DNA of 64,000 bases, taken from an uncultured virus (IMG/VR IMGVR_UViG_3300032220_001168). Lineage: Duplodnaviria; Heunggongvirae; Uroviricota; Caudoviricetes. The first letter of the stretch is position 1. Every line of letters starts with the position of its first letter. Where the stretch lies: the IMG/VR virus record IMGVR_UViG_3300032220_001168. The stretch is one strand, 5' to 3'. Positions 12,542-62,686 of the stretch are shown here, one piece after another. The translations under genes were made by a program, and so were the position numbers. The notes beneath the pieces are model-generated. The model searched no databases. It saw only the letters and a program-made list of their open reading frames with translations, and was not told the DNA's origin.

Positions 12542-12610
12542 GGATCTGGAGTGTTGGCACACGCTAGGCTCATAGCCTAGAATTCCGGGTTCGATTCCCG
12601 GCAGTCCCCA
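12542..12610 (+). tRNA. atypical tRNA, anticodon CAT (Met/Ile2)
   Basis: Anticodon arm CTAGG-CTCATAG-CCTAG; T arm CCGGG-TTCGATT-CCCGG; ends CCA; 4 nt D loop; imperfect acceptor stem. Confidence 0.7.
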
Positions 12611-23058: not shown

Positions 23059-23340
23059 ATGACAATGGAAGATCGTGGAGATGCGGCAATGCCTAAAACC
23101 AAAAAGGCAAAGCAAGCGAAAATCGCCAAGGTAATGCGCGAATTTAAGGCTGGCACTCTCAAGGGCAGTGACAAAAAAGCCATTACCAATCGCAAGCAGG
23201 CAATTGCCATCGCTCTTTCTGAGGCTGGCATGTCGATGCAAGGCAAGAGTGACGAATACTGGGACAGCTACGTGGTGACAATTATGGGCGGAGAGGAGGA
23301 AGAGGAGGAAATGGAGGATCCCGAAGAGGGAAAGTCCTAA
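23059..23340 (+). CDS. small basic protein (DUF6496-like), acidic tail
   Basis: KVMREFKAGTL...NRKQAIAIALSEA. Confidence 0.8.
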   Translation: MTMEDRGDAAMPKTKKAKQAKIAKVMREFKAGTLKGSDKKAITNRKQAIAIALSEAGMSMQGKSDEYWDSYVVTIMGGEEEEEEMEDPEEGKS

Positions 23341-23687
23341 GGGGAGACGCTGAGTCGTTCTCCCCTCCGTCGCCTGTGCGGTCCGCAGCACGTCGCGGGC
23401 TTGAATTGCGCAAGAAGTATCGGAAGGGTGGGCTGACCACCCAGGAGGCCGGTAAGCAGGGCATTGGTAGCGGGGTGGCACGGGCGACGAGCCTGGGCAG
23501 CGGAGAATCCGTGAGTTTTGAAACAATCAAGCGTATGGCGGCATTCTTTTCTCGTCACGAGAAGAACAAAAGTGGTGGTGAAAATGATGCTGGTTACATT
23601 GCTTGGCAATTATGGGGAGGAGATGCGGGTAGGGCGTGGGCAAATCGTGTGATTAAGATGGTTGAAAATCGCCAATCAAGACAGTGA
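23334..23687 (+). CDS. conserved phage head-associated domain, probably reached by -1 frameshift
   Basis: F.PP..VR.AARRGLELR...FFSRHE...IAW.LWGGDAG..WA; conserved N-terminus lies upstream of the first GTG (23376). Confidence 0.75.
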   Translation, partial: VLRGDAESFSPPSPVRSAARRGLELRKKYRKGGLTTQEAGKQGIGSGVARATSLGSGESVSFETIKRMAAFFSRHEKNKSGGENDAGYIAWQLWGGDAGRAWANRVIKMVENRQSRQ

Positions 23688-56566: not shown

Positions 56567-57049
56567 ATGGGGATGAGAAATGGACCCGAAGAACTCCTTC
56601 AATCTCTCTCCGAACTACGCCCTGGCGAGGCCAAGCGTCGTTACCGCAAAAGCATTTTTGAAGACTTCCCCACAAGAGGACCATTTGGTCATTGTGCCTG
56701 TGCCTATTGCGGGAAGTGGAGCGAGAAGCTTACGATTGATCACATCGTCCCCAAGAGCAAAGGTGGACCGCACTTTGCAAAATGGAACAATAGCCCATCT
56801 TGTCTCTCGTGTAATGCAAGCAAGGGAAGCCTGCCGTTGTTTGAATGGTGGCGACCGAAAGAATTCTGGACAGAAGAACGTGAGCTTATTTTGATGGGCT
56901 GGATTCATTCCAATAGTTTTGTTAGCGCTCACACTGATCTGTCTGATTGGGAAGCTTGGTGCCAGGCAACGCAACGTGCATTGCCCATTCATGAATCAAA
57001 AGAAAAGGGGGCTTTGGGCCCCCTCTCTATTATTTGGTGTGCGGCTTAG
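56567..57049 (+). CDS. HNH endonuclease
   Basis: CAYCG, TIDHIVPKSKGG, N...C..CN..K. Confidence 0.88.
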   Translation: MGMRNGPEELLQSLSELRPGEAKRRYRKSIFEDFPTRGPFGHCACAYCGKWSEKLTIDHIVPKSKGGPHFAKWNNSPSCLSCNASKGSLPLFEWWRPKEFWTEERELILMGWIHSNSFVSAHTDLSDWEAWCQATQRALPIHESKEKGALGPLSIIWCAA

Positions 57050-60272: not shown

Positions 60273-61037
60273 TCAAGCGCCCTTGTCAACAGTGATGGTG
60301 AAGGGTTTGCCTCCTGGATAGAATTCGTCAAAGTACCGGCGAGTTTTGTCGTTCATGATGGCTGCCTGGCAGGCGAGATCACAACCATCCATTGTTACGA
60401 TTTGCGCCTCTTCGCCCTCTCCCGTGTCTGGATCGTAGATGGAGATGGCGCAATAGGCTTCGTTAATTTCAATAGAGTACATTTGCTCAAGGGCCTGTGC
60501 GTAGGCTCCAAGTTGCATTTTGTAATCAGCTAGGTAGCAGTCGAGTTTGCGCTTGTAGCTGGTCTTCCAATCGAGGAGGGCAATGTTGCCATTCTTCATG
60601 GTGGCCAGCATGTCGAAGGTGCCGGAATAGCCAATTTGCAACTCAGAATTAAAATAGGCAATGGCGCTCTCCACTAGCAACGGCTCGTCAATGGTTTCTA
60701 GGAAGGGTTCGATGGAATGGAAATAGGGGCGATATTTGCTTTTGGCCTCAAGATGATGCTCAATATCCTCCCCATTCCATAGATCCTCCAAAACGCCGTG
60801 TAACCACACGCCACGATCAATGGAACCCATGGTGCGACGGTTGGCCTCTGCATCGCCCACTCGTTTCCGCCAGTTAATGAGAGCCATGATCTTGCCCACT
60901 GGTGAGCATGCTCCGGCTACGGTCGTAACAGAGGGCAGAACCAAGCCCGCAGGTACATGGTCCAAGCCCTCTGGCACCTTGTAATAGCGACGTTTGTCCA
61001 GTTGAATTCGGTCCGGGACAAACTGCTTGAACTTCAT
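60273..61037 (-). CDS. PD-(D/E)xK (Cas4/RecB-like) exonuclease
   Basis: LPSVTT, RG..LH, GT.D, DWKTS, QL.AY. Confidence 0.85.
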   Translation of the reverse strand: MKFKQFVPDRIQLDKRRYYKVPEGLDHVPAGLVLPSVTTVAGACSPVGKIMALINWRKRVGDAEANRRTMGSIDRGVWLHGVLEDLWNGEDIEHHLEAKSKYRPYFHSIEPFLETIDEPLLVESAIAYFNSELQIGYSGTFDMLATMKNGNIALLDWKTSYKRKLDCYLADYKMQLGAYAQALEQMYSIEINEAYCAISIYDPDTGEGEEAQIVTMDGCDLACQAAIMNDKTRRYFDEFYPGGKPFTITVDKGA

Positions 61038-61175: not shown

Positions 61176-61490
61176 TCATGGTTTAGGAGGAGCAAGGGGG
61201 CTTTGCATGTCAACTTTGTAATGGTCAATGATGGCGCCAGTACCACGGTCCCAAGTGGTGCCACAGTCTGGACATTGCCAGGCATAGCCACGATCTTCAC
61301 GCCAAGACGATAGGTAGATCACCCTGGAGAACCATTTGGAGCCACCAAAAAAGTGCTGGCTTTCTTCTGGAATGGGCTTGTCGTGCCATAGGCTTCCACA
61401 CTCTGGGCAGTTTTTAATGTCCGAAAAGCTGGTCACTTCAGAACTTCCCCCCAACACACACGATTGGCTTGCCATAGCAAAACCCTGCAC
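61176..61490 (-). CDS. zinc-ribbon protein
   Basis: CPEC...WQCPDC. Confidence 0.65.
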   Translation of the reverse strand: MQGFAMASQSCVLGGSSEVTSFSDIKNCPECGSLWHDKPIPEESQHFFGGSKWFSRVIYLSSWREDRGYAWQCPDCGTTWDRGTGAIIDHYKVDMQSPLAPPKP

Positions 61491-61774
61491 AAATAATTTT
61501 CTGAAGGGTCCGGGTCAGAAGCATATGCAACATGCGCTGATTCCCATGCACTCATCCATTGTTCTTTCGTGGGAAATTTTCTTTGATCTTGATCGTCCAT
61601 TGGTAAATAGTCTCAAGAAGGTAAACAATTGATGAAAGGATTAGCAGCAATAAGACACTGCCAATCACAATGGAAAATGTAACTGAGAGAGCCATGATTC
61701 ATCAAGAGGGCTGCCTTCAGAATTGGTGACAATTTGGCCCTTGAAAACAAGAGCCAAGCGAACTGCCGCCAGGT

Positions 61775-62686
61775 CTAAAGCTTTCCCGCAACGAATACTT
61801 CCACTCCTTTAATGGCCTGCTCAGTGGTGCCTTCGGCACAGATAGAACGAAGAGTGGCAATCTCCTGTGTCATGGCCGCCTTGGTAATCTTGATGCCTTT
61901 CTCCTTCACCCATGCCGATACCATTGCAATGATTGCATTGGCGAGCATATGAGCGTCTTTGAGATCGTCACCTTTGGAAAGGCCAAGGCTTTCCAAGGCA
62001 GTTTTGGCAGCTAAAAGACTTGCCCGCTCTTCTCCGTACTGAAGAGGATTGGCTTTGCAAAAGGCTGTGAGGGCTTCTTTGCCATTGAAGGCAACAGTCC
62101 CCGTTCCTCCAGTAGCAGGAATGCTTGTTGTAGCAGGCGACTTGTCCTGTTGCGATACCGCTGCTGGTTTCTTGCTCTCCTGTTGGAGGGGGAGTTTGGG
62201 CGCAGTTTGTACGTTGCCATCGTCAGCAGTGGGAATGTCTTCGCCGGAATAAAGCTTGAGACCAAGGCCCGTAAAAGTAGCAATACACTTGACACTGGCC
62301 CGTTGAATGTTGTCGCTCACTTGACGAGCATCAAGCTCCTTAACTGCATTGTGCTTGTTGTCCATCAATGGAAAGACCAACGCAGGAGTGCGACGGCAAC
62401 CATCTGTAAGGTAGGCCCGCAGAATCCAGCAGCCAGTCTGGCCAAACACCGGCCACCCCATTGTGCTCTCCTCAAATGCCACGAACAACGTGGGAAATTG
62501 CTCCTTGAGGTAGCGGAAAGCAAAAGGCCAGGACAAATAGGAGAGTCCTTTGTAGTTTTTCTCAACGTGCTCGCCAATGGGCAGCATGTAAGCTTTGGTG
62601 AACTGTTCAGGGGTGATTTCCAGAGGGCTGAACAGACCATTCATGCGGTCAGATAGAGCTAGTGATGCGGGGGAGGTAAGGTCCAT
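61775..62686 (-). CDS. sak: Sak/DUF1071 (Rad52-like) single-strand annealing protein
   Basis: LSYLSW..A, PLMD.K.NA, QRA.VK.IA..GLGL.LY.GED.P. Confidence 0.85.
   Translation of the reverse strand: MDLTSPASLALSDRMNGLFSPLEITPEQFTKAYMLPIGEHVEKNYKGLSYLSWPFAFRYLKEQFPTLFVAFEESTMGWPVFGQTGCWILRAYLTDGCRRTPALVFPLMDNKHNAVKELDARQVSDNIQRASVKCIATFTGLGLKLYSGEDIPTADDGNVQTAPKLPLQQESKKPAAVSQQDKSPATTSIPATGGTGTVAFNGKEALTAFCKANPLQYGEERASLLAAKTALESLGLSKGDDLKDAHMLANAIIAMVSAWVKEKGIKITKAAMTQEIATLRSICAEGTTEQAIKGVEVFVAGKL

Follow-up and report, generated by a model that had tools for sequence, protein, structure and literature searches.

The 3' end of the Sak gene

The window analysed here, a stretch of 64,000 nucleotides (nt) from the uncultured virus IMGVR_UViG_3300032220_001168, covers most of the genome of a siphovirus that resembles Synechococcus phage S-CBS4 in type. 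Its minus strand carries the gene of a Sak-like (Rad52-type) single-strand annealing protein (61775..62677), whose 300 codons give a 0-frame product of 300 amino acids (aa). We analysed the 3' end of this gene, where a -1 programmed ribosomal frameshift very probably makes a second, longer form of Sak. The 0-frame protein matches the Pfam family PF06378 (SSAP_Sak) with an E-value of 1.4e-16 and 60.9 bits (cut-off 22.3) over residues 33–158, and PHROG 8492, 'Sak-like ssDNA annealing protein', with an E-value of 7.6e-42. The AlphaFold2 model divides it into an N-terminal annealing domain (residues ~1–136), a disordered linker (~137–195) and a helical C-terminal domain (~199–299), the last helix of which reaches the 0-frame end. 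The predicted local distance difference test score (pLDDT) of the C-terminal domain is 75–87. That of the N-terminal domain is 38–65, and its Rad52-like fold is tentative. The top Foldseek matches of the model in the Protein Data Bank (PDB) are two structures of phage 80alpha Sak, 8qe9 and 8pq8 (E from 6.5e-3 to 1.6e-2, template modelling score 0.28–0.57).

On the minus strand, the Sak gene ends with GTT GCG GGA AAG CTT TAG. This end contains the slippery heptamer G_GGA_AAG (61781..61787, minus strand) in X_XXY_YYZ phase with the Sak frame, where it encodes Gly298 and Lys299. One sense codon (CTT) lies between the heptamer and the 0-frame stop TAG (61775..61777, minus strand). The initial annotation had reported a heptamer at 61787–61781, one sense codon before the stop, and this is confirmed. 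An in-frame X_XXY_YYZ word (Y = A or T) within 5 codons of the stop is found in only 5 window open reading frames (ORFs) of at least 60 codons. The extension in the -1 frame (61665..61781, minus strand) consists of 38 codons (61781–61668) and the stop TGA (61667–61665), exactly the length and the end that had been predicted for it. From 61781 it translates as ALDLAAVRLALVFKGQIVTNSEGSPLDESWLSQLHFPL (38 aa). The letters of the 0-frame TAG stop double in the -1 frame as part of a conserved Val/Leu-Asp pair, for which they supply the Asp codon. The predicted trans-frame Sak has 299 + 38 = 337 aa and is 37 residues longer than the 300-aa 0-frame form. In the window and in locus L001, TGG stands where the tail of the near relatives L002–L004 ends, so the tail is 38 aa long and not 30.

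The initial annotation had the extension filling an otherwise empty gap, which is slightly off. The next gene (61552..61695, minus strand) encodes a small hydrophobic protein of 47 aa from ATG 61695, and 31 nt of it are shared with the -1 ORF. An in-frame GTG of this gene at 61668 overlaps the -1 stop as GTGA.

The long stem described in the same annotation, 9 nt after the heptamer, is also present. It is a two-tier RNA hairpin at 61771–61724 (61724..61771, minus strand), which we propose as the stimulator of the frameshift. The inner stem, TTGGCTCTTG / CAAGGGCCAA, has 10 base pairs (bp) with one G-U pair and encloses the loop TTTT. The outer stem, TGGCGGCAGTT / (A)ATTGTCACCA, has two G-U pairs and one mismatch. 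When 111 nt of the window were folded, the free energy was -42.5 kcal/mol (z = -3.41), and 1 of 200 shuffled sequences was as stable.

Slip site, hairpin and -1 frame in related phages

Relatives of the gene were collected by several searches. Of the 57 phage records matched by tblastn, only those of the isolate S-CBS4, two records of the same phage, were related over the full length, with 56% identity at 100% coverage. From viral contigs, a first scan yielded 50 loci, and 43 of them hold the 3' end of a Sak that is 58–100% identical to that of the window. Outside these 43, one locus (L042) ends at the contig edge, and six (L045–L050) match the N-terminal domain only. A second scan, made with the family alignment, gave 80 loci, of which 49 are on new contigs and show 52–77% identity. 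Outside these counts, one locus (L054) was left out of the analysis.

It turned out that the in-frame slippery heptamer is present in 43/43 loci of the first scan. In 23 of them it is G_GGA_AAG, one codon before the stop, and in 20 it is A_AAA_AAG, directly before the stop. The same layout was found in 49/49 loci on the new contigs, with 25 A_AAA_AAG and 24 G_GGA_AAG heptamers 0–1 codon before the stop. The S-CBS4 Sak gene ends with TCA AAA AAG TAG, and in two phage contigs that were binned into bacterial metagenome-assembled genomes (MAGs; L052 and L053) it ends with ...GGA AAA AAG TAG. Altogether, all 95 related loci in which the 3' end of Sak is present (52–100% identity) keep an in-frame G_GGA_AAG or A_AAA_AAG 0–1 codon before the stop. 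The 0-frame stop in the 82 non-redundant loci is TAG in 67 cases, TAA in 12 and TGA in 3.

The bases around the slip site are fixed beyond what the protein requires. The codon before GGA AAG is GCG, CAG or GAG (Ala, Gln or Glu) and always ends in G. The codon before AAA AAG is GGA, GCA or TCA (Gly, Ala or Ser) and always ends in A. Among 40 non-redundant sequences, the Gly of the heptamer is encoded by GGA in 33/33 cases, against a GGA usage of 18% in these genes. Of the codons that precede the heptamer, Ala is GCG in 9/9 cases (usage 14%) and Gln is CAG in 8/8 (usage 36%). This choice of codons indicates that the heptamer is selected as nucleotides and is kept by synonymous choice while the residues change. 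Six distant Sak loci (L045–L050), which belong to AT-rich genomes, hold A-rich words by composition and no conserved -1 ORF. Many relatives of the A_AAA_AAG clade (L021–L041, L052, L053 and others) carry a 10-nt run, G GGA AAA AAG, which holds two overlapping in-phase heptamers, G_GGA_AAA and A_AAA_AAG.

The hairpin is conserved together with the slip site. We folded the 62 nt that follow each heptamer, and 38 of the 39 non-redundant sequences gave z < -2. Free energies lay between -18.6 and -35.4 kcal/mol, and the spacer was predicted at 0–10 nt. The registers of the stem differ among three clades, and it is thus the structure rather than the sequence that is kept. Compensatory double changes affect 8 of the 14 pairs in the largest clade (17 sequences), where 96.4% of the cells are paired. 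None of 500 shuffles reaches the observed pairing, and stems slid to other registers are 32–54% paired. In the A_AAA_AAG clade (13 sequences), 3 of the 15 pairs are compensatory.

The -1 frame was assessed in the same 39 non-redundant sequences. In the first 23 codons, stops occur in 0/39 sequences in the -1 frame, in 39/39 in the 0 frame and in 32/39 in the +1 frame. The ratio of nonsynonymous to synonymous polymorphism (pN/pS) over the tail region is 0.48 in the -1 frame, 0.90 in the 0 frame and 1.14 in the +1 frame, and variability in the -1 frame peaks at third positions. In the stem-encoding codons 2–15, the pN/pS of the -1 frame is 0.36, the same as in the last codons of Sak itself (0.37). 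The tail peptide has the consensus xVDLAAARLARAFAGxIAxDxDGxPLxE (alignment A4). Gly15 is found in 39/39 sequences, Phe13 and Asp/Asn20 in 38/39 each, and Asp3 in 35/39; Asp3, Ala7, Ala10 and Phe13 are each at least 90% conserved. The initial annotation had named loss or interruption of the -1 frame in relatives as the finding that would speak against a frameshift. In our sequences the frame is open in 39/39 and its peptide is conserved.

We also determined whether the peptide has a start codon of its own. Going back in the -1 frame from the slip site to the -1 stop upstream of it, we found no ATG, GTG or TTG in 61 of the 82 non-redundant loci and no ATG in 69/82. Thus, in the 61 loci without an independent start, the tail peptide can be made only as a continuation of Sak.

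The proposed frameshift and its alternatives

Conservation of the slip site, the hairpin and the peptide together supports the frameshift site that the initial annotation had placed at the end of Sak, with a C-terminal tail added by it. We estimate the probability that the 3' end of Sak is a -1 programmed ribosomal frameshift making a second, longer Sak at about 0.85. During decoding, GGA (Gly298) would occupy the P site and AAG (Lys299) the A site, when the hairpin 9 nt downstream holds the ribosome. A fraction of the ribosomes would then slip one base back, and the tRNAs would re-pair with GGG AAA, so that the tandem GGA-AAG becomes GGG-AAA. The slipped ribosomes would bypass the TAG two codons further and translate another 38 codons. 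The downstream stem, and perhaps also the adjacent stop, would stimulate the slippage. Two products are expected, Sak-S of 300 aa and Sak-L of 337 aa. In Sak-L, the last helix of the C-terminal domain would be followed immediately by the extra segment. Judging by the consensus, this segment may form an Ala/Arg/Leu-rich helix, DLAAARLARAF, followed by the invariant Gly and a short strand-turn-strand, xIxxDxDGxPL.

Several observations weigh against this reading. That slippage takes place, at what rate, and that the tail has a role are points that we infer from nucleotide data, and slippage could be very infrequent. The loci compared are relatives, not independent samples. The word GGGAAAG occurs 9 times in the window at 9.92 expected, and 71 of 100 shuffles contain at least 9 copies. 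The heptamer word alone is therefore at chance frequency, and the case rests on its conservation in relatives. The Ala/Arg/Gly richness of the tail and a part of the conservation of the peptide are forced by the overlapping GC-rich stem. Outside the stem, in codons 16–24, the -1 frame still has the lowest pN/pS, but the difference is weaker there (0.62 versus 0.76–0.87 in the other frames). A start codon ATG lies upstream in the -1 frame in 13/82 loci. A Shine–Dalgarno (SD)-like element, AAGGAG/GGGAG (61790–61810 in the window, minus strand), lies upstream of the heptamer in 18/39 relatives, all of the G_GGA_AAG clades. Such an element is typical of dnaX, but here it is found in only 18/39 and at 15–17 nt from the heptamer, not at ~10 nt, and it also codes for a conserved Lys-Gly/Glu-Val. 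No in-frame fusion of Sak with the tail was found, and the 120 listed Sak homologues all stop at the 0-frame end. A search of longer proteins with the tail profile gave nothing at E ≤ 0.01 or at E ≤ 10, which is weak evidence.

The frameshift could be real and still have a purely regulatory role. Slipped ribosomes would melt the hairpin and terminate on the next start codon, the tail peptide would be functionless, and the downstream small membrane protein, perhaps with the exonuclease operon, would be made as a fixed fraction of Sak. The arrangement of the genes fits this possibility. In 41 of the 82 non-redundant loci the -1 stop overlaps the start of the next ORF (ATGA, GTGA or TTGA; offset -1), and in most others the two are within ~13 nt. 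The tail, moreover, varies in its end and in its length (23–43 aa in relatives). The peptide itself, however, speaks for a function: Asp3, Phe13, Gly15 and Asp/Asn20 are conserved beyond the needs of the stem, the pN/pS of the -1 frame is the lowest both inside and outside the stem, and the -1 ORFs of the window and of the A_AAA_AAG clade extend beyond the next start. We consider a regulatory role without a functional tail improbable. If Sak-L is made as we propose, termination of the slipped ribosomes would often fall on the next gene's start codon, and translation of that gene may in this way be coupled to the frameshift. Coupling is likely because of the overlap of stop and start in half of the loci (41/82), and we regard it as a likely side effect of the frameshift.

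It is still less probable that no frameshift occurs. In that case the hairpin would be an mRNA-stabilising, processing or termination element, and the heptamer would only reflect a conserved Gly-Lys or Lys-Lys C-terminus. Hairpins just after stop codons are indeed common at gene ends, GGGAAAG has the chance frequency given above, and the two Sak products are so far predicted only. The search for terminator-like sites at 61400–62000 in the window found none, and a T-rich tail follows the stem in 3 of the 39 hairpins only, the other 36 having no U-tract. The initial annotation had allowed for the stem acting only as a terminator; by these counts it is not a plain terminator. No Rfam family, including the dnaX element, matched the hairpin. 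Absence of a frameshift would also leave unexplained the fixation of synonymous third bases in the heptamer and before it, the frame-specific pN/pS and the open -1 frame (stops in 0/39 versus 39/39 and 32/39), as well as the switch between two canonical heptamers at one place.

A separate small gene of ~30–45 aa on the -1 ORF, overlapping the end of Sak and initiated on its own, is the least probable alternative: public gene calls of 30–41 aa (8 of the 29 profile matches described below), the upstream ATG in 13/82 loci and an internal TTG in the window speak for it, but in 61/82 loci no ATG, GTG or TTG lies upstream of the conserved peptide, the conserved start of the peptide (xVDLAAA) falls exactly at the slip site, and an internal start would lie within the stable stem.

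Two other mechanisms were considered and rejected. Transcriptional slippage does not suit as a general mechanism, since half of the clade has GGGAAAG only. Stop-codon read-through was rejected, since further 0-frame stops follow in 39/39 sequences.

The known examples of programmed frameshifting in phages come mainly from tail chaperones, capsid/tail decoration and transposases. What is proposed for Sak is a classical mechanism, new for this gene class and this clade. The frameshift would lie in a recombination/replication protein and be conserved across a whole clade of cyanobacterial siphoviruses. It would correct the gene models of more than 90 public contigs. In the RefSeq record of S-CBS4 (NC_016766), no frameshift is annotated and there is no joined coding sequence (CDS); in the region of the tail (56615–56897) it has only a 31-aa minus-strand hypothetical protein (gp078). 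Among the papers listed by our literature searches, none was found to report a programmed frameshift in Sak or another recombinase, or two Sak products of the expected sizes. The PRFect paper does not mention 'recombin*', annealing or Sak, and a 2025 frameshift preprint does not mention 'recombin*' or annealing. The word 'frameshift' is absent from two annealase papers (PMC11611040 and PMC8093625).

The tail, its possible partner and related systems

Searches with the tail found little outside the Sak loci. When the tail profile was compared with 1.84 billion representative sequences, 29 matches had E ≤ 0.001. Eight of these are short ORFs of 30–41 aa. The remaining 21 are long proteins with 4–31 matched stretches each, and the two that we inspected are internal repeats. 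The six frames of the window contain no other copy of the tail motif. For 33 tails no Pfam family was found at E ≤ 10, and a protein atlas returned nothing but a 0.77 match. A sequence search of the PDB with the tail gave no meaningful match at E ≤ 10, and no tau chain was matched.

Close parallels exist in other phage genes. In the lambda G/GT tail-assembly-chaperone gene and the T7 gene 10A/10B for the capsid, -1 slippage near the end of the short form makes a minor isoform extended at the C-terminus. The heptamer of lambda G/GT is G_GGA_AAG, the same as in the window. These genes serve virion assembly, whereas Sak is a recombination/replication gene. Unlike them, the Sak site has a strong conserved hairpin and a stop 0–1 codon after the slip site.

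The E. coli dnaX gene, which encodes tau and gamma, belongs to the same mechanism class, with -1 slippage and a stable stem a few nt downstream. Its heptamer, A_AAA_AAG, is that of 45 related Sak loci (20 + 25) and also of S-CBS4, L052 and L053. In dnaX, as in Sak, the frameshift decides whether a short C-terminal segment is present. According to passages of PMC11470591, this segment of tau is the end that binds DNA polymerase III (Pol III) at its alpha subunit. The direction is opposite, since in dnaX the shifted frame truncates the protein to gamma, whereas in Sak it extends it. The Sak site also differs from dnaX in the Rfam element, which it does not match, in the SD-like element, which is found in 18/39 and further upstream, and in the gene family, as an annealase is unrelated to DnaX.

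Among annealases, lambda Red-beta and other RecT-type proteins are likewise two-domain proteins encoded beside a partner exonuclease. PMC11611040 gives their C-terminal domain as the presumed binding site of the exonuclease and of the host single-stranded DNA-binding protein (SSB). The Sak tail would be appended to the end that is equivalent to this partner-binding end, although Sak is of the Rad52/Sak family and not of the RecT/Red-beta family. The Sak proteins of lactococcal phage ul36 and staphylococcal phage 80alpha (PF06378) have a homologous N-terminal annealing domain. They are ~200 aa long and are without the C-terminal domain seen here.

Our best guess is that the tail is a docking peptide on the protein-interaction end of the annealase. 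The initial annotation had suggested that a minority of the subunits of a Sak ring carry the tail and that it may recruit SSB, exonuclease or primase. An annealase in two forms, with the ratio set at translation, would be relevant to the coupling of Rad52-type rings or filaments with their partners. One possible partner is encoded in the same operon. This is a PD-(D/E)XK exonuclease, the presumed partner of Sak (60273..61037, minus strand; PF12705 with E = 2.1e-7 and PHROG 298, 'exonuclease', with E = 6e-44). The related loci also hold a full-length orthologue of it downstream of Sak, and 34 distinct sequences were recovered. Prediction of a complex between the tail (A4) and the exonuclease (A6) gave a score of 0.00 and a mark of 0.32, which speaks neither for nor against binding.

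The alpha subunit of host Pol III is the most specific candidate partner. The tail may be a viral copy of the C-terminal segment of host tau (DnaX), which holds the replicative polymerase. We put this forward only as a tentative idea, with a probability well below one half. If it is true, some Sak subunits would tether Pol III alpha of the host to annealed single-stranded DNA intermediates, and a phage without a polymerase could start recombination-dependent replication in this way. The dnaX trick would be mirrored, with the frameshift adding the alpha-binding end instead of removing it. No DNA polymerase is annotated among the 105 CDS of the complete S-CBS4 record, and none turned up among the window ORFs that were scanned. 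The idea gives a concrete hypothesis of how a polymerase-less phage links recombination to the replisome of the host; S-CBS4 and Synechococcus CB0101 are a phage–host pair in culture.

We compared the tails with 57 complete DnaX ORFs from two non-cyanobacterial phyla, those of the bins that hold the phage contigs L052 and L053. The C-terminal motif of this sample is approximately DPxVQxLLExFxGxIVxI. One profile was built from the 33 of 57 DnaX sequences in which a regular expression picked the motif, and another, made free of the regular expression, from 50 DnaX ends. With the first profile, 33 of 73 distinct tails scored above the 95th percentile of shuffled sequences and 16 above the 99th; with the second, 33/73 and 14/73 did so. 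Against natural decoys, 32–40 of the 73 tails were above the 95th percentile, and the best tail was exceeded by 0–1 of 6000 decoys. An hhalign comparison of A4 with the DnaX motif aligned 20 columns end to end with a score of 9.75, and 1 of 200 column-permuted controls scored as high. Residues 8–18 of the tail (consensus RLARAFAGEIV) align with positions 9–19 of the DnaX profile, which correspond to E. coli tau 626–636. These residues of tau are reported as required for alpha binding in a part of PMC11470591. E. coli tau itself scores 6.9 bits with the DnaX profile, and the best tails score 7.0–9.7 bits.

Other comparisons weaken the idea of a tau copy. The tail of the window itself (…RLALVFKGQIV…) does not exceed decoys, with scores of -1.9 and -0.5 bits, and ranks 151 of 1168 window ORFs. 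With E. coli tau, hmmsearch finds no match of the tail even at E ≤ 1000, and hhalign aligns 1 column. The tail profile run against the 57 DnaX and 1714 other ORFs did not pick out a DnaX C-terminus. The signal is modest, and it comes from tails that are not independent and from the DnaX of two non-cyanobacterial phyla. Six DnaX ORFs (L142, L143, L160, L162, L163 and L177) are 379–463 aa long, lack the C-terminal motif and have Lys-rich ends.

In relatives of the window, a small hydrophobic ORF also follows the tail. It is ~33–47 aa long in the nearest relatives, with longer calls in some loci. The window has a single tRNA gene, for tRNA-Met (CAT), at 12542–12609 (plus strand), and contains no phage tRNA-Lys able to affect slippage on AAG.

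The initial annotation had counted three -1 frameshifts in this phage. Besides the Sak site, we examined one other, and it has the same anatomy. This second G_GGA_AAG (23328–23334, plus strand) lies upstream of the head protease gene in a 93-codon ORF (23059–23340), with one sense codon between it and the stop. The 'head' site to which that annotation alluded is probably this one. Within 23059–23684 (plus strand), the -1 frame is open for 117 codons after 23328–23334, and this part matches PHROG 2859 (unknown function) with an E-value of 1.2e-19.

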